From the NCBI RefSeq assembly GCF_030013205.1, contig NZ_CP122648.1: 64,000 nucleotides of DNA. The stretch is one strand, 5' to 3'. The DNA is from Escherichia coli (GTDB lineage Bacteria > Pseudomonadota > Gammaproteobacteria > Enterobacterales > Enterobacteriaceae). This document shows positions 14,709 through 33,632 of the stretch, piece by piece. The translations under genes were made by a program, and so were the position numbers. Each line of letters starts with the position of its first letter. The first letter of the stretch is position 1. The notes under the pieces were generated by a model. It ran no database searches. It worked only from the letters and a program-made list of their open reading frames with translations, and was not told the DNA's origin.

Positions 14709-14723
14709 TGGTGTCCCCTGCAG
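14709..14723. repeat. argW-derived att core fragment (matches the 3'-terminal 15 nt of argW)
   Basis: TGGTGTCCCCTGCAG is identical to the first 15 nt of the argW gene as read on the + strand at 40640-40654. Confidence 0.7.
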
Positions 14724-14796
14724 ACATCTACTTGAAGCGGCAGGGGATTGATTGGAATGGTGTTTTTTAGGTGTGAGAAATATTTTACCCGCTATT

Positions 14797-14997
14797 TTAC
14801 CCATTGGCGCGGCTTAAGAGCTTATTTTTGAATTCACAATGGTCACGATATAACCATCTTGCTCGCCCGTGGATAACTTTGGCTTTTGGCAGGTCGCCGG
14901 ACTTAATCCGGTCGTAGATGAAGGTTTTACCAAAGCCAGTATCAGCCATGATGAATTTCAAATCAACCAGGGAATCAGGCTGTAGTTCGTGTTGCAT
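14797..14997 (-). CDS. Excisionase / AlpA-family small HTH DNA-binding protein
   Basis: 66-aa ORF ...FIMADTGFGKTFIYDRIKSGDLPKAKVIHGRARWLYRD... fits the Xis/AlpA HTH pattern; sits between two att-core fragments. Confidence 0.6.
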   Translation of the reverse strand: MQHELQPDSLVDLKFIMADTGFGKTFIYDRIKSGDLPKAKVIHGRARWLYRDHCEFKNKLLSRANG

Positions 14998-15016
14998 GAG
15001 TGCTATCTCCGAATAG

Positions 15017-15032
15017 GGAATCGAACCTGCAA
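15017..15032. repeat. Second argW-derived fragment (matches the next 16 nt of the tRNA 3' region)
   Basis: GGAATCGAACCTGCAA is identical to argW 40654-40669; together with 14709-14723 it covers 30 nt of the tRNA 3' end, but the two halves are separated by 293 bp. Confidence 0.6.
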
Positions 15033-15107
15033 ATCAGGCAAGAAAAAACCGCCATCAGGCGGTTTGGTGTTCTTTCAGTTCTTCAATTCGAATATTGGTT
15101 ACGTCTG

Positions 15108-15327
15108 CATGCGCTATCTGCGCCCATATCATCCAGTGGTTATAGCAGTCGTTGATGTCCTCTGCTTCGATAAGGAGAAGAAATTCCCAATTACTCAAGA
15201 GCTATACGAGCGACTGGAAAGCGTCATCCATGATTACGATGGTGAAATCAGTTTATGCGAGGCGATTGGCACACTTGAATTGCTGAAGCAGTCATTGATT
15301 GAAGGCGCGAAAGAGTCCTTAGCCTGA
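15108..15327 (+). CDS. Hypothetical small phage protein upstream of the terS remnant
   Basis: Open frame ending ...ITQELYERLESVIHDYDGEISLCEAIGTLELLKQSLIEGAKESLA; start chosen at the first ATG, uncertain. Confidence 0.3.
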
Positions 15328-15344
15328 AATAACAACTAAGTGAG

Positions 15345-15555
15345 ATGAATATGGCAGCACCAAAGGGCAACCGATTTTGGGAGGCCCGCAGTAGTCATGG
15401 GCGAAATCCTAAATTCGAATCGCCTGAGGCGCTGTGGGCTGCTTGTTGTGAATACTTCGAGTGGGTAGAAGCTAACCCGCTATGGGAGATGAAGGCATTC
15501 TCGTATCAGGGTGAAGTGATACAAGAGCCTATCGCCAAGATGCGAGCGATGACCA
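15345..15555 (+). pseudogene. Small terminase subunit (P22 gp3-like), N-terminal about 70 codons only
   Basis: [71 protein letters not shown] matches the P22 gp3 N-terminus as I recall it; the rest of the 157-aa ORF is out-of-context read-through overlapping the next gene. Confidence 0.7.
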
Positions 15556-15657
15556 TTATCCAAACCGTATGCCTGTTGGTAGCGGTAATCAGTTGGCGAA
15601 GTGGAACGGTTGGAGTTACTTCCAGCGAAAGGAACCTTGCGATAACGGGAGCGAATA

Positions 15658-17076
15658 ATGCCGATTCAGCAACTTCCGCTCATGAAAGGTGTCGGAAAAG
15701 ACTTCCGAAACGCCGACTATATCGACTATCTGCCAGTGAATATGTTGGCTACACCCAAAGAAATCCTGAACAGCAGCGGATATCTTCGCTCATTCCCGGG
15801 CATTGCCAAACGTTCTGATGTGAACGGCGTATCGCGCGGAGTTGAGTACAACATGGCGCAGAGTGCTGTTTATCGCGTGTGTGGCGGCAAGCTGTACAAA
15901 GGAGAAAGTGAGGTCGGTGACGTCGCAGGAAGTGGTCGCGTATCAATGGCGCATGGTCGGACATCACAGGCGGTAGGCGTTAATGGTCAACTGGTCGAGT
16001 ATCGTTATGATGGCGCGGTCAAAACCGTCTCAAACTGGCCTACAGACAGCGGATTCACGCAGTATGAGTTAGGTTCTGTTCGTGACATTACGCGCTTACG
16101 TGGGCGTTATGCGTGGTCAAAAGACGGAACTGATTCATGGTTTATCACTGACCTTGAAGACGAATCGCATCCTGACCGTTACAGCGCACAATATCGTGCC
16201 GAGTCGCAGCCTGACGGCATCATCGGCATCGGAACATGGCGAGACTTCATCGTCTGCTTTGGTTCATCGACGATTGAATATTTCTCCCTGACTGGTGCAA
16301 CCACCGTTGGTGCCGCTTTGTATGTTGCACAGCCATCACTGATGGTGCAGAAAGGTATTGCTGGGACTTACTGCAAAACGCCATTCGCTGATTCTTATGC
16401 GTTCATCAGCAATCCGGCAACAGGTGCGCCGTCTGTATACATCATCGGCTCCGGTCAGGTGTCACCAATCGCCAGCGCGAGCATTGAGAAAATCCTCCGC
16501 TCCTACACTGCTGATGAACTGGCTGATGGCGTGATGGAATCGCTGCGGTTTGATGCGCATGAGTTGCTGATTATCCATCTTCCGCGCCATGTCCTCGTGT
16601 ACGACGCATCTTCAAGCGCCAATGGTCCGCAATGGTGTGTGCTGAAAACAGGCCTGTATGACCATGTGTACCGCGCTATTGACTTCATTTACGAAGGCAA
16701 TCAGATAACGTGCGGCGATAAGCTGGAGTCTGTTACCGGGAAATTGCAGTTCGATATATCTTCACAATACGAAAAACAACAAGAGCATATTTTATATTCC
16801 CCTCTAATAAAGGCAGATAACGCTTTAATAAATGACCTTGAATTAGAAACATCTGGCGGCGTGTGTGATAGAATAGATAAAATATTTATATCAGCCACTA
16901 CAGATGGAATTAGTTACGGTCGTGAGCAAATGGTCGTATTACAAAAACCATTTGTATATGAAAATCGCGTTTTATGGCGAAAGGTTGGTCGAGTTAGACG
17001 CCTCATTGGATTTAAATTCAGAGTTATTGCAAAAGGTCCTGTCACATTATCAGGCCTTTCTATTCGTGTAACATAA
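15658..17076 (+). CDS. P22 gp10-like packaged-DNA stabilization / head completion protein
   Basis: 472-aa [52 protein letters not shown]..., same length and near-identical N-terminal region as P22 gp10 from memory. Confidence 0.85.
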
Positions 17077-17097
17077 ATCGAAACTCAAGGAGTAGAT

Positions 17098-17631
17098 ATG
17101 TTAAGTGAAAACGCAAAAGATATCGAAGGATATGAAGGACTGTACGCCATCACTAATGATGGTAGAGTTTACTCGCATTCAAGAGTAAATTTGAGGGGAC
17201 GTCTTATTAAGGGTAGGTGGCTGAAGCATAATCATAACGTAAATGGATATAAGTATGTGTGTTTATATAAGGATGGCGTAAAAAAGAACATACTAATACA
17301 TAAGCTTGTTGCATCTCACTTTGTTGGTGGATTTGCTGAAGGGTTACAGGTAAATCATATAGATGGTGATAAATATAATAATAACTATCTAAATCTTGAA
17401 TGGGTTACTCCATCAGGAAACATCTCACACTCATATGGATTGGAGTCGAGAGGTAATGTAAAAGGAGAAAGGAATGGTAATTCTAAAATATCTAATGATG
17501 ATGTCATAAAGATAAAAGAAATGGTTGCCAATGGATTTCCTCAGTGTGAAGTTGCTAAATTATTTGGAATTCACAATTCAAAGGTTAGTAGAATTGTAAA
17601 TGGCAAGGCATGGAGGCATGTTAATGGCTGA
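17098..17631 (+). CDS. HNH homing endonuclease (HNH + AP2/NUMOD-like DNA-binding region)
   Basis: 177-aa ORF with [17 protein letters not shown] and HKLVASHFV...[11 protein letters not shown] (HNH) motifs; free-standing between gp10 and the tail needle gene. Confidence 0.8.
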
Positions 17632-18055
17632 TTCGAATCTCAACACCCCTGTTATTGTGCAGGCTACGCGGCTCGATACATCAATACTTCCACGCAATAT
17701 CTTCTCGCAGTCGTATCTGCTTTACGTTATCGCACAGGGCACTGATGTTGGTAACGTGGCTAACAAGGCCAACGAGGCCGGACAGGGCGCTTATGATGCA
17801 CAGGTCAGGAACGATGAGCAGGATGTGATTCTGGTCGATCATGAAGAAAGAATTCGTCAGCTCCGCATTGAAGTAGATGACCATGAAATCCGTATTGCTG
17901 CGAATACTGCGGCAATTGCAGCGCTGGATGTCAGACTAACCACGGCTGAAGGAGAAATAGTCACCTTACAGGCTGACGTCAGCGCTCTTGATGGCCGGGT
18001 TCCCGAGAAATACAAAGAGCAGAATTACAAGAAAAGGCTCTGGACAGACAGATAG
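17624..18055 (+). CDS. Tail needle protein (P22 gp26-like), N-terminal domain conserved, short divergent C-terminus
   Basis: [43 protein letters not shown]...[48 protein letters not shown] matches the gp26 N-terminal coiled coil; only 143 aa versus about 233 in P22. Confidence 0.7.
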
Positions 18056-18582
18056 CCAGAGAAAGCAATCAGTTAAAGCTCGAAGAGCTAAAACAGAAAC
18101 AGGCAGATGTTCGGCAAAAGGCTGACATAGCCCGCGCTGACAGGCAGGCCGCCGCTCAGGGTGCGGTTGATACGTTCAGCACCGCGCTTGATTCTCTCAA
18201 CGAGACAGAGCAAAGCCCCGGCCTTTCAAAAGCAGTAGGAATTCGCTCAGCGTTTCCGACAGTTCCTGGCTCTGATGCGGCTAACTTTGAAGCAAGACTC
18301 GACACCTTTAAAGCTCAAACTTTCCTCCCTATGGTGCAGTCCCTGAAGGGGATGGGGGCTCTTTCAGATGCTGAGGGTAAAAAATTATCTGATGCGGTTG
18401 GTGCTCTAAGTCCCAAAATGAGTGAAAAGGCTTTTCGTGACTCTATCGGAAAGATTCGAAATCAGCTTGAAAGCAAGTTGAGCACTGTTAAAAAACAGTT
18501 TGATTATCAGGAGCCAGTACAGAATACGCCAGGGCAACAATCTACTACTGGCAGTAACTTTTCTTCACTATGGGGTGATTAA
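17986..18582 (+). pseudogene. Start-less coiled-coil ORF fragment (possible 3' part of a tail needle or ejection gene after a deletion or frameshift)
   Basis: Frame open from 17986 with no ATG until 18331; encodes ...LKLEELKQKQADVRQKADIARADRQAAAQGAVDTFSTALDSL...; stop overlaps the start of the next gene (ATGA at 18579-18582). Confidence 0.3.
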
Positions 18583-20579
18583 TGGCTAAAGCATGGAAAG
18601 ATGTTATCGCCTCTCCACAGTATCAGGCGTTAGCACCAGAACAAAAAGCGCAGGCTCAGGAGCAATACTTCAATGAAGTCGTTGCCCCGCAAGCCGGAGA
18701 AAATGCAGAGCAGGCTAAGCAAGCTTTCTATGCTGCCTATCCATTGCCATATGTGCAGCAAGTGGAGACACAGCAACCAGTAGCACAGCAACAACCACAG
18801 CAAAGTGGATTTATGTCTGATCTTGGCGAAGCAGTAAAAGAGACTGGTCGCGGACTGGTGCAGGCTGGCGTGAACGTGGCAAACATACCTGCATCAGTTG
18901 CCGATGCTGTAACAAGCGCGGCGGCTTGGGCTGGCGGTAAACTCGGCATTGGCGATGGTACATATCAACCAGCGCCACGTGTAACAACGCAGGGATTAGA
19001 GCAGGACTTTGGCCTTCAGCAAGGCGCGCTGACTCCACAAACGACAGAGGGAAGGGTATTTGCTGAAGCATTGCCTTACCTCACTCCTGCTGGCGTTGAG
19101 AGAGCGGCAGCACAGGCACCAACACTTGCTGGTCGAATTGCTCATGGGGCAACTCGCCTTCTAGCAGAAAACGCAGTTGGATCACTTGCTGCAAATAGTG
19201 CGAAAGATGATGCGGAAGCACTCGCCACCGATTTGGGCGTTGGTGTGCTGGCTGGCGGTGCTATTAACGCTGCCGGACGTGGATTAGGTGCTGCTTATCG
19301 TGGAGTTCGTGGTGCTATTGCGCCAGAAGCGCAGCAAGCTATCAGATTTGCAGAGCGTGAAGGAGTGCCTCTGCACACCACAGACATGTTACAGCCTACT
19401 TCCCGCGTCGGAAAAATGGCGCAAACGACAGCAGAAAATATCCCCCTGGCGGGCACAAGCGGAATGAGAGCAACGCAACAGGAAGCGAGAAGCCAGTTGG
19501 TTCAGAGATTTGCTGATAAATTCGGTGAGTATGATCCAGCGGTTGTTATTGACAGCCTTAAAGCGAAAACATCAGGAATTCGTCGCGCTGCAGGAAATCG
19601 ACTGGAGCAGGTTCAGAATGCTATGGCGGGAATAAACATTCAGCCTGCAAGAGCAATTCAGCAGATTGATACAGAAATATCTAACCTGCAGAAGCTTGGT
19701 AAGGTTGCTGATAACGAGACTATTTCAAAACTTCAGTCCTATCGTGATGAGCTTGTTCGCAATGCTGGTCCTGATGGTCCGGTAAATCTGGATTTGAAGC
19801 AATTAAGCGATCTGCGCAGCCAGTTCAGAATGGACGTGAAGGGTGAGCGACCAGTGTTACCAAACCGTTCCGATGCTGCAATTCAGCGCGTTTACAAGGC
19901 AATGACCGACGATATCAATGGTGCCATTGGTCAGAATCTTGGCAACGATACTCTCCGTAAATATCAGCAGGCCAATGCCGTCTACGCTGACGAAGCCGCG
20001 AAACTAAAGAATACCAGGCTGAAGAATGTTCTCATGAAAGGCGATCTGACGCCGGAAGTTGTCAACAACATGCTATTCAGCAAGAACAAATCGGAAATTA
20101 AGACGCTGTATAACTCAGTTGGTCGTGTTGGCAGGGCGCAAATGCGCAATGGCATCATTGGAAAGGCGATGGAGAAATCTGGCGGATCCCCTGACCAGTT
20201 CCTTCGGCAGCTTAACATCCTGCAAAACCAGACTGGCATCACATTTAAGGGGCAGGACGCTGCTTATCTGAAAGGATTAAAAAACTACCTGCAATCTACG
20301 CAGCAGGCTGCAAAAGCGGCAGTAACAACACCCACAGGGCAGCAAACTATCCCGTTCATTATTGGGTATGGGACGGCAATGAACCCTGCGACAACTGGCG
20401 CAGCAGTAAGCTACGGACTTCTTACTCGCGCCTATGAGAGCGAGCCATTCAGAAATGCAATGCTCAGAATGGCAAACACCCCACGCGGATCAACAGCGTT
20501 TGAGAAAGCCATGCAGCAGGCACAAAAGGCAATTAACGCTCTGACGCAGGGGGCTAAGTCTGATGCGTTGTCAGAATAG
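18582..20579 (+). CDS. Putative phage DNA-transfer (ejection/injection) protein
   Basis: 665-aa Ala/Gln/Gly-rich protein in the position of the P22 ejection-protein genes (after the tail needle, before mnt); assignment is positional and compositional. Confidence 0.5.
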   Translation: MAKAWKDVIASPQYQALAPEQKAQAQEQYFNEVVAPQAGENAEQAKQAFYAAYPLPYVQQVETQQPVAQQQPQQSGFMSDLGEAVKETGRGLVQAGVNVANIPASVADAVTSAAAWAGGKLGIGDGTYQPAPRVTTQGLEQDFGLQQGALTPQTTEGRVFAEALPYLTPAGVERAAAQAPTLAGRIAHGATRLLAENAVGSLAANSAKDDAEALATDLGVGVLAGGAINAAGRGLGAAYRGVRGAIAPEAQQAIRFAEREGVPLHTTDMLQPTSRVGKMAQTTAENIPLAGTSGMRATQQEARSQLVQRFADKFGEYDPAVVIDSLKAKTSGIRRAAGNRLEQVQNAMAGINIQPARAIQQIDTEISNLQKLGKVADNETISKLQSYRDELVRNAGPDGPVNLDLKQLSDLRSQFRMDVKGERPVLPNRSDAAIQRVYKAMTDDINGAIGQNLGNDTLRKYQQANAVYADEAAKLKNTRLKNVLMKGDLTPEVVNNMLFSKNKSEIKTLYNSVGRVGRAQMRNGIIGKAMEKSGGSPDQFLRQLNILQNQTGITFKGQDAAYLKGLKNYLQSTQQAAKAAVTTPTGQQTIPFIIGYGTAMNPATTGAAVSYGLLTRAYESEPFRNAMLRMANTPRGSTAFEKAMQQAQKAINALTQGAKSDALSE

Positions 20580-20668
20580 CTTTTCAAACACCAGGAACGT
20601 GCAAAAACCAAATATGTAGAATGCAATATTCATCATATCTCTGTGCATAAATCCTCCGTAACGGATGG

Positions 20669-20932
20669 TTATCTGCTGTCTTTTTTATATAGCTCCTTGA
20701 GCGTATCAAAGACAATTTTCTTAACCATATCAGATTGTTGTTCTGCCATACGCTCTGCATCGTCAATGTAAACTGATGCAGAGCTTTGTTTATCCAATGA
20801 TTCTTCAATCGCTGCAATTATCTCTGAGTTCAGCGACCTGTTATTCATCTTCGCACGCAGCTTAATTTTCGCGTGGAGTTCATGCGGAAGTCTCAAGTGA
20901 AACTGCGCCTCATCGTATTTGCTGTACATCAT
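20669..20932 (-). CDS. mnt: Mnt/Arc-family ribbon-helix-helix repressor
   Basis: 87-aa product MMYSKYDEAQFHLRLPHELHAKIKLRAKMNNRSLNSEIIAAIEESL...DMVKKIVFDTLKELYKK resembles P22 Mnt; the longer 244-aa ORF in the track is an upstream read-through. Confidence 0.75.
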   Translation of the reverse strand: MMYSKYDEAQFHLRLPHELHAKIKLRAKMNNRSLNSEIIAAIEESLDKQSSASVYIDDAERMAEQQSDMVKKIVFDTLKELYKKDSR

Positions 20933-21064
20933 CAATGCCTCACCAAATGGGTGGAATGGCATCGTAAAACCCACTGTACAAATCAACAATCGTACCGTTT
21001 CGGTATGTAACAAATTCCAACCGTAGCCATGCTGCGGCCATTCCTTGTATCTGGAGCAAATTAA

Positions 21065-21734
21065 ATGACAGACATTACAGCCAATGTGATCGTATCGATG
21101 CCTTCGCAACTCTTCACTATGGCTCGTTCTTTTAAAGCCGTAGCCAATGGCAAAATTTATATCGGTAAAATTGACACTGACCCGGTAAATCCTGAAAACC
21201 AGATTCAGGTTTATGTGGAGAACGAAGACGGTTCTCACGTTCCTGTTGCACAGCCAATCATCATTAACGCCGCTGGTTATCCTGTATATAACGGACAGAT
21301 TGCCAAGTTCGTTACTGTGCAAGGCCATTCCATGGCTGTTTATGATGCGTATGGGGCGCAGCAGTTCTATTTTCCGAATGTGCTGAAGTACAACCCTGAT
21401 CAATTACGAACAATTCTTGAAGGAAGTATTATTGATTCTTCAGGCGATGTTTTTGGCTCTCCTGTGCGTGATTTTGAATATTTTGGCGCAGTAGGTGATG
21501 GTGTTGCCGATGACACTAATGCAATTAAATCCGCGGCTGCATGGGTTACTTCTGGAAATTATCGGCAAATAACTACCAGAGAACAAAAGATATATCGCGT
21601 AACATCAACCGTTGATTTTAATTTCGCTAACGGCCGCGGTCACTCGATTCTGATGAAGAGTCCAATCCGACCTGATGCTGGAACCGGCACTGCTTTTCTC
21701 ATTCAGAATACTCGAGACTCGGTATTCAATTTGA
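21065..21734 (+). pseudogene. Tailspike gene, 5' part (P22 gp9-type head-binding domain plus start of beta-helix), interrupted by IS1
   Basis: [58 protein letters not shown]... matches the P22 tailspike N-terminal domain; the frame is cut by the IS1 end at 21735. Confidence 0.85.
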
Positions 21735-21749
21735 GGTAATGACTCCAAC

Positions 21750-22253
21750 TTACTGATAGTGTTTTATGTTCAGATAATGCCCGATGACCTTGTCATGCAG
21801 CTCCACCGATTTTGAGAACGACAGTGACTTCCGTCCCAGCCTTGCCAGATGTTGTCTCAGATTCAGGTTATGCCGCTCAATGCGCTGAGTATAACGCTTG
21901 CTGATAACGTGCAGCTTTCCCTTCAGGCGTGATTCATACAGCGGCCAGCCATCCGTCATCCATACCACGACCTCAAAGGCCGACAGCAGGCTCAGAAGAC
22001 GCTCCAGTGTGGCCAGAGTGCGTTCACCGAAGACGTGCGCCACAACCGTCCTCCGCATCCTGTCATACGCGTAAAACAGCCAGCGCTGACGTGATTTAGC
22101 ACCGACGTAGCCCCACTGTTCGTCCATTTCAGCGCAGACAATCACATCACTGCCCGGTTGTATGCGCGAGGTTACCGACTGCGGCCTGAGTTTTTTAAGT
22201 GGCGGAAAATCGTGTTGAGGCCAACGCCAATAATGCGTGCACTGGCGCGACAT
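21750..22253 (-). CDS. insB: IS1 InsB' (transposase made as an InsAB' frameshift fusion)
   Basis: 167-aa ORF ending ...[18 protein letters not shown], overlapping insA in the -1 frame. Confidence 0.95.
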
Positions 22254-22447
22254 CCGACGCCATTCATGGCCATATCAATGATTTTCTGGTGCGTACCGGG
22301 CTGAGAGGCGGCGTAAGTGAACTGTAGTTGCCATGTTTTACGGCAGTGAGAGCAGAGATAGCGCTGATGTCCGGCGGTGCTTTTGCCGTTACGCACCACC
22401 CCGTCAGTAGCTGAACAGGAGGGACAGCTGATAGAAACAGAAGCCAC
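22172..22447 (-). CDS. insA: IS1 InsA
   Basis: 91-aa [46 protein letters not shown]... Confidence 0.95.
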
Positions 22448-22502
22448 TGGAGCACCTCAAAAACACCATCATACACTAAATCAGTAAGTTGGCAGCATCA
22501 CC

Positions 22503-23790
22503 CAATTTGAAAGTAGATGGGGGCGGGGACTCAAATGCGGATTACTATGTTCCTGGAAGCACAAACTTCGTTGACTATAGCCAGGCAGACCCGGCAGGCG
22601 CCCAGACAGCATTTTATATCAGGGGGGTCAGAAATTCTGATATTGATGTGACTGGGCTTAAATTTGCAGGGCGAGTTCTTCGCACCAATGCGTTGGACGT
22701 TGCCGCTGGTGGGATTATCAAAACATCGTTCAATACATTGCGCATTAAGACTGGGGACCAGGGGGCCGGTGAAACTGTACGTTGTGGTCAGGCGTATTAT
22801 CTACAAGGTGATGATTCTGCATGGGGCAAGATTGATCGCGCCTGGCTTAACTGGGACAGGTTTGGCAGTGTGCATTACAAACTAGTGGATGTTACCATTG
22901 GGAATATAGAAGCTGGTTTTGCAGGTAACGGCGGGCTTCAGTTTTATGGGATAGCTACCGCCCACATTGGAACTCTTTCCGTTGGTGATGAGACATTAAC
23001 TAACACTAATATCTTGTTCGCTAACTCAACGGACGGACAAGAATGTATTGCAGTACATATAGACAGAATCTTTACTGGCTCAGGTAATATCGGGGTAGAG
23101 CTAAGGGGTTCTAATGGGGGTGGTGGTGGTAATAGACCAAACTTTGATATCAACAGCATCTACGTAATTACGTGTGCAAACAGCAATGTCATATTGAACG
23201 GAACCAATAATAGCATCATAAGGAATATTCAATCTCAGGGCGGCGCTGTTGCCGTTAGATTGCAGCGGGTTATAAGAAACCTTCATCTCACTATTAATAG
23301 CTCCTCTGAATCAGGATCTAGCATCCTCGCAGACCCAGGTTCAAACATAAATAACTTGTATGTTAATGGCAGGAGTTACGGTAATACAGGAGCAGCTACT
23401 GTAGACCTTTTAGCCGCTACTGGGGGTATGCGCTGTGTGTTTGATGGATATACCGTGCGATCTGGAATGGCAGCGTACGCCATTCCAGTAACAAACTCTG
23501 TCACCATTCAAAATGGTGAAATAGATATATCATCTGGAGGTGTTGCTTTCTCGGTTGGAGTTCCAAGGGTAAACGTAAATAACGTTGGGTTTATTACTAG
23601 GAATAGAGGGTCAGGTTTAATTTTGGCAGGAAACCAGACCATTACTATCTCTCATGGTCTTGCACAACAGCCAACAGAAATATGTGTGACGCCATTATCA
23701 ACAGCAACTGGGTTTAGAGTGCTTAATATTACAGCGACATCATTTGATGTGAGATTATCCTCTGCATTAGGTGGTTCGGATCCAGCTTAG
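22503..23790 (+). pseudogene. Tailspike gene, 3' part (receptor-binding beta-helix domain)
   Basis: Frame continues directly from the 5' part once IS1 and one TSD copy are removed (...DSVFNL|KVDGGGDSNADYY...); Gly/Asn/Thr-rich beta-helix-like repeats. Confidence 0.8.
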
Positions 23791-23828
23791 ACATTCAATT
23801 GGTTTGCATCATGTGAGTATCATTAAAA

Positions 23829-23860
23829 TATTAAGGGGGCGCGCCCCCTTAATATTTTTG
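23829..23860. terminator. Bidirectional intrinsic terminator between tailspike and the glycosylation cassette
   Basis: GC-rich palindrome AAGGGGGCGCGCCCCCTT flanked by A-run and T-run. Confidence 0.6.
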
Positions 23861-23861
23861 C

Positions 23862-24794
23862 TCACTTACCAATACTTAAGTAGAAAAGAGATTTCATCTC
23901 TCTTCTGCTTACAGTTATTGCCTGCAATATGATCCCGCACATAAATGACAGGACTGAAATAAGCATAATTGCACTTGCTGCGACTGCCGTTGGCAATCTT
24001 GGTACCAGTCCTGTTTCTGCAAACTCTTTAACGATAGGCAGGCCAAGAGATAGAGAAATAACCGCAAAAAAGCATGAAAGTATTCCGAAGAAATATATTG
24101 GTCTTTCAATTGCATAAAGCTTTATTATAGTCTTCAGGATTCTGAATCCATCTTTGTAAGTTGAAAGCTTACTTTCAGAACCATCAGGTCTGCTTCCATA
24201 ATATGTATCTACTTCACCATATTTCATACGTAATTCCAGAGCATGAATCGTCAGCTCTGTTTCAGTCTCAAATCCTCTTGACTGGCTTGGAAAAGATTTT
24301 ACATATCGTTTTGTAAAAGCTCTATATCCTGAAAGCATGTCAGTAAATTCACCTTTAAATATTGTCGTAACAGTGCCAGTTAAAACTCTGTTTCCAAACC
24401 TGTGACCAGATCGATATGTTTTTATAGACCCATCATCTTTTCTACATCCAACAACCATATCTAGGTCATCATCAATAAGTTTATCGATGAGTTTTTTTAC
24501 AGCTGCTGCCTCATAGGTATCATCGCCGTCAACCATGATGTAAATGTCAGCATCAACATCAGCAAACATTCGTCTAACAACGTTACCTTTCCCTTTTAAG
24601 TTAACGTGCTTAACTATAGCTCCAGACTGTTTTGCTACATCTCCGGTAGAGTCTGTGGAATTATTGTCAAATACGTAAATATCACCTTCCGGAAGGAACC
24701 TTCTAAAATCTGTGACGACATTAACTATAGAAAGCGCCTCATTATGGCAAGGTATTATAACTGCAACTTTAAAACCTCTGTAGTTATTCATCAC
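23862..24794 (-). CDS. GT2-family polyprenyl-phosphate glycosyltransferase (GtrB-like architecture: GT-A domain plus two C-terminal TM helices)
   Basis: 310-aa ORF with ...AVIIPCHNE... and ...MVDGDD... (DxD) motifs and a hydrophobic C-terminus; N-terminus diverges from canonical GtrB. Confidence 0.7.
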   Translation of the reverse strand: MMNNYRGFKVAVIIPCHNEALSIVNVVTDFRRFLPEGDIYVFDNNSTDSTGDVAKQSGAIVKHVNLKGKGNVVRRMFADVDADIYIMVDGDDTYEAAAVKKLIDKLIDDDLDMVVGCRKDDGSIKTYRSGHRFGNRVLTGTVTTIFKGEFTDMLSGYRAFTKRYVKSFPSQSRGFETETELTIHALELRMKYGEVDTYYGSRPDGSESKLSTYKDGFRILKTIIKLYAIERPIYFFGILSCFFAVISLSLGLPIVKEFAETGLVPRLPTAVAASAIMLISVLSFMCGIILQAITVSRREMKSLFYLSIGK

Positions 24795-24801
24795 ATAACC
24801 T

Positions 24802-26160
24802 CTACATGTAATATCTAGTAATAATGGAAGGAATCATTGCGTTCAACGAAACAATTAACATTATAACTGTGATAATGTACGCAATCATTTGTTTTTTCTT
24901 GTTCTGGCTCATTAACAAGAAGGCGGAAATAATTACAGGAATCACAAAGTATCGCCCCTGAATACCAATTATAACATCGGTAGGAAATTTTGAATATTGC
25001 ACAAGTAATGCGCAAAAAATCAATGCTGCTGACCCAAGTGACACTATAGCCACTGATAAGGAAAAGAATATATGTTTTTTGATTTCCGAATAAGAAATAG
25101 ATAATGATATTAATGCAACTATTACTACAAAAGAAACAATATAAAGATAGGTTGGCATCCATATGTCTAGCCACCCCAACTTCCCTACAAAACTCTTGAA
25201 GTAGAATGAACTGCGACCGTAATCAGAAATGGTATTGTAAATTATACTTAAAATTTCAAATGGATGTTTTAAGTAATATGCTATAACCTCGCCTTGACTT
25301 ATTCCAGGGTGGTTTACCCCTCCATCCACGGTTATTGATATTGTTAATCCTATCCATCCTAGAGATAGCACTGCAGCAAAAAATGGAGGTAACAATCTTA
25401 TTTTTGATTGTGAATAATATGCCGCAATGAATGGTAAAATCAACACTGGTATAAGGTTAGCCCTGCTTGAAACTAGAATAAATGCAATAAATGAAATAAA
25501 TATTAAGCAGGTGTCTCCAATCTCCTTTTTCATTGCCCCTCTTGCAAGTAAGCACATCATAAGAACAGACAATGATGTTGTTATACCATCTATAGTTGTT
25601 GCAATGAACTGAAAAAGCATCATCGGCATGACCATAACACATAAAGCAAGTGCTGGTATTCTATATATGCTATTGGCATATATAATGATTGAGATGCAAG
25701 TTATAAATGCCAGAAATCGCGATATTTTATAAGTGTCTAGGATGGATAAATTAAAAGCTTTACCAAACATAATCCCTATTGACTGAGGGATGTATACAGC
25801 GGGGAAGTAAAATGCTGTGTTTGGTATCTCTTTGTATACTTTGTTATCCCCCCAATTTTTCATATCAATGCCTAACATCATTGAATTGGATATTTTCCCA
25901 ACATGTCCATTATTAAATATTTCAAATGAGTCATTTAGAGACTTATCAATGTAACCACCTGACTTAAAACCATCGTTATTATTTAGGGTTATTACCCCGT
26001 TAGTAAGAAGATAAGCGCGTGAAAAATGATGTGGCTCATCAGGGCTCATAAATGGTGGAGTTACAGAACTTATCGCAATATATAAAACAAAAGAAAAGAT
26101 AAATAAAAATAATTTTTTATGTAATGATTTCATTTGGCAATCACTTATCATTAAAAACAA
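24802..26160 (-). CDS. Polytopic membrane glycosyltransferase (GT-C/GtrC-like, serotype-specific O-antigen modification candidate)
   Basis: 452-aa AT-rich multi-TM ORF between gtrA and the GT2 gene; 20-bp overlap with gtrA. Confidence 0.55.
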   Translation of the reverse strand: MFLMISDCQMKSLHKKLFLFIFSFVLYIAISSVTPPFMSPDEPHHFSRAYLLTNGVITLNNNDGFKSGGYIDKSLNDSFEIFNNGHVGKISNSMMLGIDMKNWGDNKVYKEIPNTAFYFPAVYIPQSIGIMFGKAFNLSILDTYKISRFLAFITCISIIIYANSIYRIPALALCVMVMPMMLFQFIATTIDGITTSLSVLMMCLLARGAMKKEIGDTCLIFISFIAFILVSSRANLIPVLILPFIAAYYSQSKIRLLPPFFAAVLSLGWIGLTISITVDGGVNHPGISQGEVIAYYLKHPFEILSIIYNTISDYGRSSFYFKSFVGKLGWLDIWMPTYLYIVSFVVIVALISLSISYSEIKKHIFFSLSVAIVSLGSAALIFCALLVQYSKFPTDVIIGIQGRYFVIPVIISAFLLMSQNKKKQMIAYIITVIMLIVSLNAMIPSIITRYYM

Positions 26161-26500
26161 TAAATTTTGCGTACAAGAAGCCTATAAATAAGCTTATTGC
26201 TGAAAATATAATGGCGCTAAGCATAGGTGGCGTATAAAGTATGTCTCCAACCCATCCAACGCAAGAGCTGAGTATTCCCATAAATCCCACATAGAGTAGA
26301 TATCGCATTGTTGATGTTCTTGACATAAATGTGAATCTGGCATTTGCAAAGAATGAGAAGCTTACTGCAAAGATAAAACCGGCTAAATTAGATAACGCTT
26401 GGGTTGCGTGCATTGAATAATAACAAAAAGCAAATATAACCCAATGTATGATTGTGTTGATGATGCCAATAGATGTGTACTTAGCGAACAATTTTAACAT
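26141..26500 (-). CDS. gtrA: GtrA-family flippase-like small membrane protein
   Basis: 119-aa ORF MLKLFAKYTSIGIINTIIHWVIFAFCYY...FFANARFTF... matches the GtrA family. Confidence 0.85.
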   Translation of the reverse strand: MLKLFAKYTSIGIINTIIHWVIFAFCYYSMHATQALSNLAGFIFAVSFSFFANARFTFMSRTSTMRYLLYVGFMGILSSCVGWVGDILYTPPMLSAIIFSAISLFIGFLYAKFIVFNDK

Positions 26501-26650
26501 TTTTTTGTCAACTAACTCTTAAAGGGGGGAGTCTATCACTTTAGTCTCAATCGATCGATACTTGCTGTGGTTGATGGGGCAAAACTGAGACACAAAAAGC
26601 TTTGCACTGGATTGCAAGGCTTTGTGCACTTCGATAGTGGTTAAGGTGGA

Positions 26651-27808
26651 TCACTCCACCTTTTCATCAATCCAGTCCGCCCACCACTGCATCATCTCCC
26701 GGCGCTTATCGAGATACTGAGCATGGTTGTAAATCCCGCGCACAGATCCGCCGTTGGCATGTGCCAGTTGCACTTCAATAGCATCAGCAGGCCATTCGTG
26801 CTCGTTCATAATCGTGCTGAATTCATGCCTGAATCCGTGACCGCTTTCCAGACCTTCATAGCCGATTTGTTTGATCACAAGCAGTACAGCGTTCTCGCAG
26901 ATTGGCTTCTTCTTATCGTTGCGCCCGGCAAAAACAAACTCTGATACTGGTTTAGTGATTGAGCTTAGTGTAGTGAGAAGTTCAACCACCTGGTCTGACA
27001 TCGGGACAACATGAATTTTGCGTCCCTTCATCACACTGGCGTCGATGGTGATAATCCTGTTTTCAAAATCGACGTTCTTCCATAGCATGGAACGAAGCTC
27101 TTTTGTTCTTAGGGCTGTGTAGCGTAAAACTTTGGTCGCAATGAGCGATACGATACTTCCTGAAAATGTTGCAAGTGCTTTGTTGAATGCCGGGATCTGG
27201 TCGGCAGGTAAAAACGGGAAGTTCTTCTTGCGGTATCCCTTCATGGCGTCAGCAAGGTCAGGTGCCGGGTTATATTTAGCCCTACCAGTAACAATAGCGT
27301 AACGGAAAACCTCGCCGCATCTTCTGCGTGCTTTGTTGGCTCGCTCCATTGCACCGCGATCTTCAAATCTGCGGATTACTTCCAGAAGTTGCATCGGCTC
27401 AATATCCTGAATTTCAAGGCCGCCGATGATAGGTAAAATGTCGTCATCAAACATTTTTGCAAGTTCATTTGCATAGCCTACTGACCAGACTTGCTTCTTG
27501 TGCTCGTACCATTCCTTGTAAATGGCGCTAAAGGAATTGTTGTTAGACGAAGCCTTTTTCGCCTTTACCGGATCGATGCCAACCGAGATGTCTTTCCTCG
27601 CAGTCCATGCTTTATCCCTTGCCTCTTGCAAAGTCATAAGCGGATATTTTCCGACGGTCAGGATTTTCTCCTTACCGTCAATCTTGTAGCGAAGCTGCCA
27701 TACCTTTTTCCCTGATACAGGGACATAAAGATACAGGCCATTACCATCGAGTAGGCGGTATGGTTTTTCTTTCGGCTTTGCTGCTTCAATCTGCTTAACG
27801 GTGAGCAT
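26651..27808 (-). CDS. intS: Tyrosine integrase, IntS/CP4-57 type (DUF4102 arm-binding N-domain)
   Basis: Start taken at MLTVKQIEAAKPKEKPYRLLDGNGLYLYV...; C-terminal ...HGFRHEFSTIMNE... catalytic region; adjacent to an argW-derived att copy. The track's upstream GTG start is judged less likely. Confidence 0.85.
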   Translation of the reverse strand: MLTVKQIEAAKPKEKPYRLLDGNGLYLYVPVSGKKVWQLRYKIDGKEKILTVGKYPLMTLQEARDKAWTARKDISVGIDPVKAKKASSNNNSFSAIYKEWYEHKKQVWSVGYANELAKMFDDDILPIIGGLEIQDIEPMQLLEVIRRFEDRGAMERANKARRRCGEVFRYAIVTGRAKYNPAPDLADAMKGYRKKNFPFLPADQIPAFNKALATFSGSIVSLIATKVLRYTALRTKELRSMLWKNVDFENRIITIDASVMKGRKIHVVPMSDQVVELLTTLSSITKPVSEFVFAGRNDKKKPICENAVLLVIKQIGYEGLESGHGFRHEFSTIMNEHEWPADAIEVQLAHANGGSVRGIYNHAQYLDKRREMMQWWADWIDEKVE

Positions 27809-27969
27809 GGGTAAAAATCCGGTGGGTAAAATTATTTTATCCACTTTTTACCCGTCATGGAGTGCGGCTGTCAACGATCTGACGCGAACCATGACGAACC
27901 GTGAATATACGGAAGGCTTGATATTCAGGGTATTTTGCGGACTGGTACGGATGGGAGCGAACTGATAAA

Positions 27970-27991
27970 TGGTGTCCCTGCAGAAATCATC
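27970..27991. repeat. argW-derived att copy at the junction of the two tandem islands
   Basis: TGGTGTCCCTGCAGAAATCATC versus argW TGGTGTCCCCTGCAGGAATCGA (one missing C, two mismatches). Confidence 0.7.
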
Positions 27992-28205
27992 TTAATTATT
28001 ATCATATTGATTTATATGTTATTTATTTTAGCCATCTTGTTTTTGTACCCGTTTTGTACCCGTTTTATTCTATTCCCAATTTAAACTTCGATTCTGGAAA
28101 GGTGAGTAGGGGAGGTTATCATTTTATGTATCATTGTTGTAGACACAGAATAATTACTCGCCTATCCTCACTGTATACACACCATAGATACAGGAGTTAA
28201 CCCAC

Positions 28206-28454
28206 ATGCGCACACAGGTTGTATTGCAAAAATGGGGTAACAGCATTGCCCTTCGACTAACGGGAAACCTTAAAACCGTTCCGGGTTTTTCAGTGGGTGA
28301 TATCGTCAACGTTGAAATTAGTGAAAAAGGGCTTTTTGTAGAAAAGCCTGCACGCCGTCGCCTGAGTGAAGCCGAACTACTCGCCGGGATAACGCCAGTT
28401 ACAGCGCACGCTGACGAAATTGCCACCCCATTCAATGAGGAGGTTGATTACTGA
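28206..28454 (+). CDS. MazE/PemI/ChpS-family antitoxin (AbrB/SpoVT fold)
   Basis: 82-aa ORF MRTQVVLQKWGNSIALRLTGNLKTVPGFSVGDIVNVEISEKGLFVEKP... Confidence 0.8.
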   Translation: MRTQVVLQKWGNSIALRLTGNLKTVPGFSVGDIVNVEISEKGLFVEKPARRRLSEAELLAGITPVTAHADEIATPFNEEVDY

Positions 28455-28798
28455 TGTTTGTACCTAAGCGTGGTGATATTTGCTGGCTGGATTTTGAGCC
28501 GCAGAAAGGAAAAGAGATCGGAAAGTATCGCCCGGCACTCATACTATCCCATGAGCAATATAACCGACTCACCGGGCTTGTCATATGCTGCCCCATAAGT
28601 ACGAGCATACGAAATGCTCCCACAGAAGTTCCGGTAACAAATCTGGACGCCCCCAGCGTGGTAGCAACCACACTCATTCAAACCCTTGACTGGCGTCAGC
28701 GGAAAGCGCGCTTAATCACAGAGGCAGAAGATGGGGTATTTAATGATGTGCTTGAAAGAGTCATTACTCTGATTGGTGGAGAGCATCTGCTTAAGTAA
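28454..28798 (+). CDS. MazF/PemK-family endoribonuclease toxin
   Basis: 114-aa ORF MFVPKRGDICWLDFEPQKGKEIGKYRPALILSHEQYNRLTGLVICCPISTS..., start overlapping the antitoxin stop. Confidence 0.8.
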   Translation: MFVPKRGDICWLDFEPQKGKEIGKYRPALILSHEQYNRLTGLVICCPISTSIRNAPTEVPVTNLDAPSVVATTLIQTLDWRQRKARLITEAEDGVFNDVLERVITLIGGEHLLK

Positions 28799-28841
28799 AA
28801 GGAGGGCTGAGAAGCCCTCAACGTTACCGGAAATTTCCTTG

Positions 28842-30113
28842 CTATTCTTTCCAGTCAATCCCATCCAGTAAGCACCCTGCCTCATATTGCCCCACCACCC
28901 AGTCAAGGTTACAGGACTCATAGAACGCGAGGCGATTATACTGAGGCTCGTTTTTTACCAGGCCACGAACGGAACCACGCTGCCAGTACAGACACAGATT
29001 GGCAAGAGGTGTGATCAATACAGCATTGTCCGGGAAAAATGGAACGGTCACAGCCGGGAGATTCCCCAGAACGGGATTTTTAATGATTTCCTCGTTAAGC
29101 AAAATTTCCTGATTCATCTGCGATGGATCAAGACGGTTTATCAAAGGCCATTGTTTACGGACCAGCGTATTGTGACTGCATACGGCCACAATGCCTTCCT
29201 GCCACTGTTCATCAATCATGGATTGCCAGGCATCCAGAACGAGCGCATCTATCGTATGGTGTGTACCGCGTATATTACTTTTCGGTGATGAGACAGAAAG
29301 GCCGCTGATAACCCTTCCCGCCGCTTCATTTCGAAACTTCTGCAACCAGCCCACGCCGCAATCGTCACGCCCCGGATATGTTCCGGGATCTGATACATCG
29401 GCATAGTGCGTACCGTTAAAACCAATCTGAATCAAATCCAGCCATTTCTGGCGTTCAAAAGCAGCCCGGGCGCTTCCTTCAAGACCGTTTGCGGATGCGT
29501 GAGCATCAACATTGTCGTAGTTCAGCGCAAAATCAAAATTAACCTGCTCGCAGCGGTAGCCCCTTGAAACCAGTGAATGCGCCTGTAGTGGCGAGCGGCG
29601 CTCGTGAGGTGGCGATGTACGTGCTAACGGCCCCGAAGCGTCTACCAGCACAACCTGACCTGATATATCCGTAACAGGCACGGGAGTTATTTCAGCAAGG
29701 AAATTTGCCTGCCATCCACTGGCAAGCGTTGCACTCTGGCGGGGGACGGGTTCAACTTCTGACGAATAGCGCGCAGTGTCACCGGAAAAGTGCAAATCCT
29801 TCGGATGCTTTCCGGTTATCGACTCGATAGCGCAATTGAAAACCATCTGAGACTGTTGATTTCGTTGTGATACAACAGAATCAGCAGTGCAATTATAACG
29901 CTCAATGCCGTCGTTATTACCCCCACCGCTTGCAGTATGCAGGGTGTGAAGCTCAAGCTCACGCTCCAGTTTTTGATATTCATTGTCCAGCGCGCGACGC
30001 GTCTCATCGCTTATGCTTGCTGTGTTTGCTTTCAGGCGATTCCGGGACATTAATCCCCTGAGTCGGCTCACTATATCAGCGCCGTGCAAATGTGGAGTAT
30101 TCAGACCGCCCAT
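28842..30113 (-). CDS. P2 gpN-family major capsid protein homologue with divergent N-terminal region
   Basis: Start taken at internal ATG 30113 (TAATG overlap with the upstream gene stop). C-terminal two-thirds align by eye with P2 gpN (...YRCEQVNFDF..., ...GWLQKFRNEAAGRV..., ...GNLPAVTVPFFPDNAVLITPLANL..., ...YESCNLDWVVGQYEAGCL...). Confidence 0.7.
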   Translation of the reverse strand: MGGLNTPHLHGADIVSRLRGLMSRNRLKANTASISDETRRALDNEYQKLERELELHTLHTASGGGNNDGIERYNCTADSVVSQRNQQSQMVFNCAIESITGKHPKDLHFSGDTARYSSEVEPVPRQSATLASGWQANFLAEITPVPVTDISGQVVLVDASGPLARTSPPHERRSPLQAHSLVSRGYRCEQVNFDFALNYDNVDAHASANGLEGSARAAFERQKWLDLIQIGFNGTHYADVSDPGTYPGRDDCGVGWLQKFRNEAAGRVISGLSVSSPKSNIRGTHHTIDALVLDAWQSMIDEQWQEGIVAVCSHNTLVRKQWPLINRLDPSQMNQEILLNEEIIKNPVLGNLPAVTVPFFPDNAVLITPLANLCLYWQRGSVRGLVKNEPQYNRLAFYESCNLDWVVGQYEAGCLLDGIDWKE

Positions 30114-30823
30114 TACTGCCACCCCCGGCAGAGTTCTCTGCCCTCCGCAAGGTCGCGCATTTTTTCTGGATTCTGTCGCGCCGCGCTCCATTGTACAGGT
30201 GAAGGGGCGCTCCTGATTGCGCAGCTTACTGAATCCGGGAGTTTCTCCGGGCAATAACGCAGCGGGCTGGAGGTGTCGCTTTCGGTATCGTTAATCCGGC
30301 CGCGAATCATCCCGACACTTTCAGCAGTATCTGCCGCTTTCAGTGTTTCGCATATTTTCTTTTCTGCGTTATACAGCGGCTGGCCAAGTAGCTCACATAA
30401 ACCACGAATCAATAACAGAACAGGGGTCAGCTCGTTAATCAGTTCGGGAAGTGCTTTTGCAAATATCTCTGCCCGCAACTTATTATCAATGCTTTCGTAA
30501 GCACAACCAGCCTCTGCCGCGTTATAACGACACTCCAGTAGCCTGATGCGCGCTTCATCATGCAATACCCGCAGACGCTCAAGATTTTCTCGCGCCACAC
30601 CCGCCTGAATGGATAATTTCGCGGAGGCTTCCGTTTTTACGCCCAGCGCAGACAGGATTGAGTTCTGCCAGTCACGATCGAGAGATTCCAGCTCCCCTTT
30701 CGTCTGTTCGATAGTCGCTTCCAGATTGGTGATTAATGATTCCTGTTCACTGAGTTTTGCCATGGCTGTATCAAACTGTGCTTTACATACCTGATGTTCG
30801 GCGCTTGCCTGAGTTATATCCAT
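30113..30823 (-). CDS. Coiled-coil protein coupled to the capsid homologue (candidate scaffold, Sid or Psu-like morphogenetic factor)
   Basis: 236-aa helical ORF immediately upstream of and overlapping the capsid gene start; assignment is positional. Confidence 0.4.
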   Translation of the reverse strand: MDITQASAEHQVCKAQFDTAMAKLSEQESLITNLEATIEQTKGELESLDRDWQNSILSALGVKTEASAKLSIQAGVARENLERLRVLHDEARIRLLECRYNAAEAGCAYESIDNKLRAEIFAKALPELINELTPVLLLIRGLCELLGQPLYNAEKKICETLKAADTAESVGMIRGRINDTESDTSSPLRYCPEKLPDSVSCAIRSAPSPVQWSAARQNPEKMRDLAEGRELCRGWQ

Positions 30824-30873
30824 TATTTGCTCCTGTAATACATTTTTTTACTTACGCCGATTTTTTCCATATT

Positions 30874-33630: not shown

Positions 33631-33632
33631 AC

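Follow-up and report, generated by a model that had tools for sequence, protein, structure and literature searches.

P22 gp9, Sf6 gp14, HK620 gp9, and the CUS-3 tailspike begin with a conserved head-binding domain that is followed by a right-handed beta-helix, and the tailspike described here resembles them in having a conserved N-terminal head-binding domain and then a predicted right-handed beta-helix. The gene also lies where it does in P22-like podoviruses, 3' of a gp16 homologue and mnt and ahead of O-antigen modification genes and int. At the level of the whole prophage, the closest counterpart is CPS-53 (KplE1), a cryptic prophage of Escherichia coli K-12 that occupies argW and carries intS, yfdGHI (gtrABC), and torI. 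The locus analysed here is like it in its argW (tRNA-Arg CCU) site, in having intS and torI at its two ends, and in having kept the gtr genes while its morphogenesis genes decay. This locus appears to differ from CPS-53 in that it is Sf6-like, has a complete or IS1-split tailspike gene together with gp10 and gp16 homologues, and, in the IS1-bearing strains, has a P4-like island in tandem behind it. IS1 transposes through staggered cuts in its target, and repair of the resulting gaps duplicates the target bases; the length of this duplication is reported as 8 or 9 bp (PMC12428005).

In this study, we analysed a window of 64,000 nucleotides from the E. coli contig NZ_CP122648.1. The interrupted tailspike gene within it is very probably the result of a simple, recent IS1 transposition into a defective Sf6/P22-like remnant at argW in porcine edema-disease E. 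coli O139:H1 (ST1).

RESULTS

An earlier note on this DNA had proposed that a tailspike gene was disrupted by IS1 with an 8-bp target duplication, and this was borne out by a 768-bp element with CAATTTGA on either side (Table 1). The ends of the element, GGTAATGACTCCAACTTACTGAT and GGTGATGCTGCCAACTTACTGAT, are imperfect inverted repeats of approximately 23 bp that agree at 18 of 23 positions, and the left-end motif has a single occurrence in the window versus 0 expected in shuffles. AAAAAAC (A6C), the -1 frameshift motif that joins insA and insB', lies at element position 307, and RefSeq labels the element in strain ETEC1748 as "IS1 family transposase, programmed frameshift" (WP_236281370.1). 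Annotated IS1 elements have the same size, ends, frames, and A6C motif, and the window copy is 90 to 99% identical to thousands of them. The left junction reads ...TCAATTTGA/GGTAATGAC and the right junction ...GCATCACC/CAATTTGAAAG; the target duplication is 8 bp, not 9, since the adjoining bases mismatch on either side, and the chance of an 8/8 repeat match at fixed boundaries is 4^-8, or approximately 1.5 x 10^-5. Eight base pairs is the less usual of the two duplication lengths reported for IS1.

The insertion point is codon 223/224 of the tailspike gene. The disrupted 5' frame runs into IS1 (...FNL-R-stop), giving a 224-aa ORF (21065-21739) whose product comprises the head-binding domain and the first beta-helix turns and stops after one IS-encoded codon; the other 426 codons were left without their start once IS1 had inserted. 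RefSeq lists the 3' part as a 427-aa "hypothetical protein" that starts with TTG at position 22507, and we infer that the interrupted gene is null. When positions 21065-21734 were joined to 22511-23790, they formed 1,950 nt, a length divisible by 3, encoding 649 aa, with no stop other than the terminal one and with ...DSVFNL/KVDGGG... across the junction, in agreement with the in-frame ORF of about 650 aa that the earlier note had predicted on removal of the element. Both halves were retranslated, a refutation test set beforehand, and no further frameshifts or stops were found. The reconstruction agrees at every nucleotide with the genes of the O139:H1 strains W13-16 and ETEC4068, which are uninterrupted and in which the empty site is CGGTATTCAATTTGAAAGTAG, holding one CAATTTGA; therefore, the empty site exists in nature.

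Table 1. Features of the tailspike locus (positions are those of the window)
Feature	Position	Strand	Description	Evidence
Sf6/P22-like prophage remnant at argW	14709..27988		~13 kb	RefSeq annotations, BLAST map onto Sf6, Pfam, att cores
mnt-like Arc-family repressor gene	20669..20929	minus	Directly upstream of tailspike, divergent	RefSeq (ETEC1748), ORF translation
Tailspike, 5' part	21065..21734	plus	Codons 1-223 and first base of codon 224	ORF list, Pfam, Sf6 gp14 match
Target-site duplication CAATTTGA, left copy	21727-21734		8 bp; single copy in empty sites of W13-16, ETEC4068, EC556, ETEC6333
IS1	21735-22502	minus (transposase genes)	768 bp	ORF list, sequence inspection, RefSeq, identical copies elsewhere in same genomes
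IS1 terminal inverted repeats	21735-21757 and 22480-22502
insB' frame	22253-21750	minus	167 aa	ORF list
A6C frameshift motif of IS1	22196-22190	minus
insA	22447-22172	minus	91 aa	ORF list
Target-site duplication CAATTTGA, right copy	22503-22510		8 bp
Tailspike, 3' part	22511..23790	plus	Remainder of codon 224 to stop; most of predicted beta-helix and C-terminal domain	ORF list, RefSeq, AlphaFold, Foldseek
Terminator-like hairpin, bidirectional	23834..23850		Between converging tailspike and gtrB
gtrB, DUF2142 (gtrC-type), gtrA	23862..26500	minus	O-antigen glucosylation (serotype-conversion) cassette; intact in all genomes inspected

The remnant that surrounds the gene consists, in order, of an attL core, torI, fragments of the small terminase and gp4 genes, a gp10 homologue, an HNH/NUMOD4 endonuclease gene, a needle fragment, a fragment of a gp20 homologue, a gp16 homologue, mnt, the IS1-interrupted tailspike gene, gtrB, gtrC (DUF2142), gtrA, intS, and an att core. 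Its common genes are 96 to 97% identical to those of Sf6, and the BLAST map showed that the Sf6 parts that were kept are attP/torI, the end of gene 68, gene 8, the needle N-terminus, the end of gene 12 with gene 13, the tailspike N-terminus, and int. According to RefSeq and the Sf6 map, the remnant has nothing of the early and lysis region, no large terminase, portal, scaffold, or coat gene, and neither a gp14 nor a gp7 homologue. Approximately 13 of approximately 39 kb of phage genome is left, about two thirds having been lost, and the genes for replication, lysis, packaging, and the head no longer form a full set. RefSeq annotates the same fragments in ETEC1748, K_EC180, W13-16, and ETEC4068, strains with an intact tailspike included; since intact-tailspike strains have the same deletions, the tailspike gene was already an orphan when IS1 inserted. 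Judged by its gene content, the prophage would have been unable to make virus particles before that insertion. The receptor-binding protein that the earlier note described as otherwise intact is therefore intact as a gene, but it is not part of a working phage. Separate decay steps were seen in sister strains, namely, a 2.67-kb deletion in EC556 and, in ETEC6333, an IS3-family element within the HNH endonuclease gene.

The intact gene encodes a P22-type tailspike in which a conserved head-binding adaptor is joined to a rare receptor-binding module with a predicted right-handed beta-helix. Residues 1 to 113 match the Pfam family PF09008 (Head_binding; E = 2.6e-66), residues 1 to 116 are approximately 90% identical to Sf6 gp14 (E = 1.5e-63 for the N-terminus in the PDB sequence search), and PHROG tailspike families gave the same assignment. 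The AlphaFold model is all beta, with pLDDT mostly above 80 for residues 130 to 570; its best Foldseek matches were the Sf6, P22, HK620, and CBA120 tailspikes, polygalacturonases, and AlgE4, with low global TM-scores (0.25 to 0.36) that support the fold class and nothing finer. The earlier note had placed IS1 between a head-binding/early helix part and a receptor-binding part; however, the insertion coincides with no domain boundary, and in the model the insertion codon lies within a beta-strand of the helix domain, approximately 110 residues beyond the end of the head-binding domain.

The view that the C-terminal part differs from that of P22 was upheld, in that the PDB and Pfam matches cover residues 1 to 116 only. 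The receptor-binding part (residues ~120 to 649) had no sequence similarity to any solved tailspike in the PDB search, matched no Pfam family above threshold, and was absent from the records of the phage collection. The nearest IMG/VR contig is 66% identical, and 5.8 billion proteins yielded only 25 relatives, the nearest distinct one being 61% identical; some relatives bear other N-terminal adaptors, for example, PF18668. A characterised relative that might indicate the substrate was sought in the PDB, Pfam, the phage collection, and IMG/VR, and none was close enough. Five acidic residues (D250, D339, D350, E357, and E384) are invariant in the family alignment and are candidates only for a putative role in O-antigen binding or endoglycosidase activity.

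The tailspike gene was detected in 17 of 5,426 complete E. coli genomes, every one of which came from a pig or wild boar and carries the O139 wzy gene (ETEC1748 has annotated O139 wzy and wzx genes); two genomes with O139 wzy lack the tailspike gene. The lineage is O139:H1 ST1 (PMC8798679). Because this is a single clonal lineage, the O139 association is confounded by clonality and amounts to one phylogenetic event. The intact tailspike presumably bound, or plausibly cleaved, the O139 O-antigen of the ancestral phage's host; homology and structure prediction, from which the earlier note had hoped to read the O-antigen specificity, gave no readout beyond this lineage-confounded association. The gene is uninterrupted in 10 of the 17 genomes (99.9 to 100% identity) and carries IS1 at the same position in the other 7. 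With no more than 1 nt of variation in this gene across the 17 genomes, there is no power to analyse selection on it. Many of them match the query at a second place (ETEC1748 has one place and ETEC4067 two, in chromosomes differing by 9 bp), which probably represents borderline similarity to a short stretch of another head-binding-domain fragment and not a second full prophage. A literature search found no papers naming the ETEC17xx and ETEC40xx strains.

Two IS1-bearing loci, those of ETEC1748 and K_EC180, were examined directly and have the same IS1 start in the locus, the same CAATTTGA, and identical junctions. The match in K_EC180 is 3 nt shorter, and a separate insertion in this strain was considered; it was rejected on the basis of the common IS1 start and repeat and the many frameshifted housekeeping genes in that assembly. 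The window, ETEC1748, and K_EC180 also have in common a 12.65-kb island (27989-40638) that is missing from all four intact-allele loci inspected. This island of the IS1-bearing strains is P4-like and lies at argW, in tandem after the remnant; PADLOC returned no matches for four of its genes. Flanking SNPs numbered 1 to 2 between the window and ETEC1748 or K_EC180, versus 4 to 9 between the window and intact-allele strains. Among public contigs, 30 contain the exact 427-aa 3' fragment, 24 a second partial form of 427 aa, and 70 the intact protein, and draft assemblies independently gave the exact 224-aa and 427-aa fragment proteins. The disrupted allele was seen in Belgium and Korea, and the intact alleles belong to several diverged sublineages (France, Japan, the Netherlands, and Belgium), each with private changes.

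IS1 sequences 100% identical to the window copy occupy 12 to 22 places per chromosome in the O139:H1 strains, in which the isoform has expanded, and a plasmid of these strains carries another. The isoform, taken at 99% identity or more, is uncommon: 150 of 9,595 IS1-positive records contain it, and among the matches listed all were from pigs or wild boar; it is also found on O139:H1 plasmids, including pW1316-2, the F18/hly plasmid of W13-16 (PMC8798679). The number of places with identical copies varies among sister genomes, which implies that the isoform was recently active; this does not extend to the window copy itself. The insertion itself appears to be recent, as the earlier note had also suggested, given that its IS1 matches others in the same genomes at 100% identity and that the gene halves are identical to the sisters' intact allele.

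DISCUSSION

The arrangement of the locus is most simply explained by a single transposition event. The InsAB' transposase would have cut CAATTTGA with an 8-bp stagger at codon 223/224, and gap repair would have copied these 8 bp to give the duplication on either side of IS1. The insertion would then have arisen once, in a sub-clade that also has the P4-like argW island, and have been inherited by descent; the island common to the IS1-bearing loci and the fewer flanking SNPs among them argue for this single origin. Since phage genes had already been lost in all the relatives, these deletions suggest that the insertion changed nothing in phage production, and we infer that it was most likely a neutral step of decay. 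The disrupted allele is common in public assemblies, an observation that counts against neutrality and leaves room for a selective advantage.

We consider it unlikely that selection favoured either the absence of the tailspike or the making of the 224-aa head-binding fragment. Such selection might be envisioned if an O-antigen-degrading enzyme harmed the host's own LPS or if the fragment acted as a decoy that blocks P22-like tail assembly, and it would fit the frequency of the disrupted allele and its presence in both Belgium and Korea. However, the position and the target duplication are the same in every inspected case, as a single inherited event would predict, the gene is intact in 10 of the 17 complete genomes, and independent decay elsewhere in the sister remnants fits relaxed selection. 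Two draft assemblies break inside the tailspike gene at a second position, approximately window position 22849, and these breaks could mark an independent IS insertion, but no IS sequence is present at them; P0003, a 306-aa fragment considered as a possible marker of a second IS site, comes from a contig that stops within native tailspike sequence and shows no IS end. The decoy role itself is very unlikely. In it, a 224-aa product expressed from the remnant, having approximately 110 residues beyond the head-binding domain but no receptor-binding module, would act as a dominant negative, taking up the sites at which co-resident or superinfecting P22-like phages dock their tailspikes and lowering their infectious yield. 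The 5' fragment does keep the complete head-binding domain, and the P22 counterpart has been crystallised alone (PDB 1lkt). Were this so, a dead structural gene would have become a defence factor through the IS insertion, and selection would account for how frequent the disrupted allele is and for the possible second break point.

The direction of the change could also be the reverse, with IS1 ancestral at the site and the intact alleles derived by precise excision, because loss between the 8-bp repeats would recreate exactly the empty site observed. Precise excision of IS1 is rare, several excisions would be needed to account for intact alleles spread over several diverged sublineages with private changes, and the IS1-bearing strains are near-identical to one another and have a common derived island; we regard this history as highly improbable. 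Hardly any weight can be given to a misplaced IS1 copy in the assembly of a repeat-rich genome. Each chromosome has 12 to 22 IS1 places and the K_EC180 assembly is error-prone, but seven independently assembled complete genomes are interrupted at the same gene coordinates, with identical junctions in ETEC1748 and K_EC180, the element is surrounded by a perfect target-site duplication, and the fragment proteins of 224 and 427 aa were recovered independently from draft assemblies.

Recent IS1 transposition followed by descent is therefore the reading that we favour. The event itself is of little weight, being ordinary prophage decay; it is, however, a clean example of the IS-mediated decay of a cryptic prophage, in which the empty site, the filled site, and sister decay steps are all kept in close relatives. 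It also explains why annotation pipelines split this gene into a pseudogene and a "hypothetical protein", and the IS1 junction and the neighbouring argW island provide simple PCR markers for a sub-clade of O139:H1 ST1. Phage-based prophylaxis is being explored for edema-disease E. coli. The protein encoded by the intact allele (WP_063086732.1), which belongs to a rare and uncharacterised family of beta-helix proteins, is a candidate for a receptor-binding protein or depolymerase specific to O139 and could serve in the typing or targeting of these strains.

The IS1 insertion

The element, its boundaries set by script, is exactly 768 bp long, ends in GGTAATGACTCCAACTTACTGAT and GGTGATGCTGCCAACTTACTGAT, contains the A6C frameshift motif and is labeled by RefSeq as an intact programmed-frameshift IS1 transposase. 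Its left-end motif was found at one place in the 64-kb window and at none in 100 shuffles. The earlier note had described a tailspike gene disrupted by IS1 with an 8-bp target duplication; the disruption is real and was accurately described, with CAATTTGA present on both sides. Because the adjoining bases mismatch on either side of these repeats, the duplication stops at 8 bp and does not reach 9 bp; both lengths have been reported for IS1 (PMC12428005). In the split gene, a premature stop lies one codon into IS1, the 3' part has no start of its own, and the flanks are collinear. In silico excision, joining 21065-21734 to 22511-23790, gave 1950 nt encoding a 649-amino-acid protein, in agreement with the predicted in-frame ORF of about 650 amino acids; its sole stop is terminal, leaving neither half with further frameshifts or stops, and the junction joins ...DSVFNL to KVDGGG... 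exactly as the note had given it. From established IS1 biology, InsAB' would have cleaved the target with an 8-bp stagger, followed by gap repair. A promoter and terminator scan revealed a bidirectional terminator after the tailspike gene and nothing else of note.

Features of the tailspike locus and its surroundings
Feature	Position	Strand	Remark
5' tailspike ORF	21065-21739	+	224 aa, starts MTDITANV...; ORF listing over 20700-24200
Target duplication	21727-21734, 22503-22510
IS1	21735-22502
insB' frame	22253-21750	-	ORF listing
insA frame	22447-22172	-	ORF listing
3' tailspike ORF	ends 23790	+	ORF listing
Prophage remnant	14709-27988
Retained 1			att core, torI
Retained 2			180 bp matching end of Sf6 gene 68
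Retained 3			small-terminase fragment fused to gp4 fragment
Retained 4			gp10 homologue
Retained 5	17098-17631		HNH/NUMOD4 endonuclease gene
Retained 6			needle gene, first ~220 nt
Retained 7			end of gp20 homologue, whole gp16 homologue
Retained 8			mnt-like repressor
Retained 9			tailspike
Retained 10			gtrB, gtrC (DUF2142), gtrA
Retained 11			intS
att cores	14709, 27970, 40640		1-nt deletion at 27970
Integrative island	27989-40638		12.65 kb

Empty and occupied sites

A search of 5,426 complete E. coli genomes with the reconstructed gene found at least 80% of it in 17. It is uninterrupted, at 99.9 to 100% identity, in 10 of the 17 (W13-16 and P15-25, both O139:H1, ETEC4068, ETEC4075, EC556, EC571, EC581, ETEC6333, ETEC6334, and ETEC1701) and lies in two pieces around an IS1 in the other 7 (ETEC1748, 4067, 4069, 4070, 4071, 4079, and K_EC180). 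The unoccupied insertion site occurs naturally: the W13-16 and ETEC4068 genes equal the reconstruction at every nucleotide, with one CAATTTGA at the empty site, and the EC556 and ETEC6333 genes are each 1 nt away from it. The window itself is close to the ETEC1748 chromosome (2 mismatches and 1 gap over 42.7 kb). The K_EC180 match is 3 nt shorter; a second insertion event was rejected in favor of sequencing error, since the IS1 start coordinate is unchanged and the assembly is rich in frameshifts (evgA, emrK, emrY, and dsdA). Most of the 17 genomes, although not ETEC1748 and ETEC4069, have a second partial tailspike match, probably a small piece of a head-binding domain at another chromosomal location.

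An exact-sequence look-up in approximately 15 billion proteins found the intact 649-amino-acid protein in 70 contigs, the 427-amino-acid 3' fragment in 30, a second 427-amino-acid partial form in 24 more, and the 224-amino-acid 5' fragment in 6. These counts of fragment proteins indicate that the disrupted allele is a hallmark of a sizeable sublineage.

A prophage already in decay

The earlier note did not place the gene in its prophage remnant, which we defined by combining the RefSeq annotation of this DNA with BLAST matches placed along the Sf6 genome (39 kb). The remnant lacks the early, replication, nin, Q, and lysis region (~20 kb), the large terminase, portal, scaffold, and coat genes, and the needle C terminus and gp14 and gp7 homologues. 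W13-16 and ETEC4068, whose tailspike genes are intact, carry the identical set of deletions; the phage was therefore already defunct by the time of the IS1 insertion. Tailspike function would have been lost with the insertion; phage production would be unaffected, because the remnant is incapable of making particles. Independent, lineage-specific decay of the same remnant continues in sister strains: the EC556 locus (L005, 19230-19865; Japanese strains) has lost a further 2.67 kb, including the gp20-homologue fragment and the gp16 homologue, and in the ETEC6333 locus (L006, 14765-15993; Dutch strains) an IS3-family element splits the HNH/NUMOD4 gene. At all loci inspected, both the gtr cassette and intS have remained intact. 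The HNH/NUMOD4 homing-endonuclease gene separates the gp10 homologue from the needle-gene fragment, two neighbors that abut directly in Sf6 (Sf6 positions 8254/8254).

The att cores read TGGTGTCCCCTGCAG, and the one at 40640 is the 3' end of tRNA-Arg(CCU). Compared with W13-16, homopolymer lengths differ at 26523-26530 and 27979 (G6 versus G7 and C3 versus C4), one immediately 5' of intS and one within the middle att core; the latter may reflect secondary integration of the island. That integrative island, in tandem with the remnant at argW, encodes a MazE/MazF-type toxin-antitoxin pair, two integrases, and a toprim primase and has ogr/Delta-like and Icd-like genes, together with a P2-family major capsid gene (PF05125) whose product is extended N-terminally by ~130 amino acids; it looks like a P4-like satellite with its own capsid-family gene. 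PADLOC returned no matches for four island proteins.

Recency and probable single origin

The tailspike IS1 is 100% identical to further copies in the same genomes, in keeping with the recent insertion that had been proposed. IS1 occupies 12 to 22 places per chromosome, the number differing among O139 (wzy-positive) strains, and the same isoform is found on plasmids of these strains, including pW1316-2, and on the 86,378-bp plasmid of the O141:H4 strain P13-6; these two are the F18/hly plasmids of W13-16 and P13-6 (PMC8798679). Of 9,595 IS1-containing records, only 150 have a copy that is at least 99% identical, and among the matches listed, the sources are pig or wild boar throughout. Pig-associated E. 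coli account for nearly all occurrences of the exact isoform. Judged by sequence, the isoform appears lineage associated and recently active, and its link to pigs, variable number of chromosomal places, and plasmid copies together suggest a recent, plasmid-seeded expansion.

Flanking SNPs relative to the window number 1 to 2 in ETEC1748 and K_EC180, 4 to 5 in ETEC4068 and W13-16, and 8 to 9 in EC556 and ETEC6333. The island is common to the window, ETEC1748, and K_EC180 and is absent from all four intact-allele loci inspected. A single IS1 insertion in the ancestor of the subclade is the parsimonious reading of these patterns. It is very unlikely that the inactivation was adaptive or that it left a head-binding decoy. 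An IS1 ancestral at the site, with the intact alleles arising by later precise excision, is less likely still, and an assembly artifact, for an insertion seen in seven complete genomes, is the most remote of these readings. What speaks for them is the allele frequency and a contig break near 22849 in two draft assemblies (e.g., GCA_021998945.1), nothing else. There, the contig ends inside the tailspike gene and not at the IS1 site (L009, 1-22), leaving a 306-amino-acid 3' ORF; the contig end shows no IS sequence and could reflect either an independent repeat insertion or a plain assembly break.

Tailspike module and candidate receptor

Residues 1 to 113 form a P22-type head-binding domain (PF09008; E = 2.6e-66), and the head-binding part is ~90% identical to Sf6 gp14. 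DNA similarity to every phage record ends at ~nt 350 of the gene, and past approximately residue 116, a PDB sequence search gave no match and Pfam none above threshold, consistent with the earlier statement that the C-terminal part differs from P22. When residues 110 to 649 were queried against 5.8 billion proteins, only 25 relatives emerged, the closest distinct one being 61% identical. Some bear other N-terminal adaptors (PF18668 and PF26208), a well-known pattern in which receptor-binding modules are swapped.

An AlphaFold model made from 22 sequences had a mean pLDDT of 73, with a poor head-binding part and all-beta residues 130 to 570 mostly above 80. Foldseek against the PDB ranked the Sf6, P22, and HK620 tailspikes, CBA120 TSP1, polygalacturonases, and AlgE4 first, at global TM-scores of only 0.25 to 0.36; this ranking supports a right-handed beta-helix for the receptor-binding part. 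The note had placed IS1 between the head-binding/early beta-helix part and the receptor-binding part; in the model, codon 223/224 falls in beta-strand E219-226, so that the predicted cut interrupts the helix and not a domain boundary.

The annotation of ETEC1748 includes the O139 versions of wzy and wzx. Among complete genomes, 19 have O139 wzy, namely, all 17 that bear the tailspike plus VG12A2 and Z1323HEC0010, which do not. W13-16 and P15-25 are O139:H1 ST1 edema-disease strains (PMC8798679). The 17 genomes are one clone; therefore, their O139 association counts as a single event. The tailspike of a temperate phage normally recognizes the O-antigen of the lysogenized host, which makes the O139 O-antigen the obvious candidate receptor, and the receptor-binding module may be O139 specific.

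Biologically, the disruption is ordinary: in a lineage rich in IS1, a single hop landed in an orphan gene of a prophage undergoing decay. Mild novelty is confined to the receptor-binding module, a rare, uncharacterized member of the beta-helix tailspike class.
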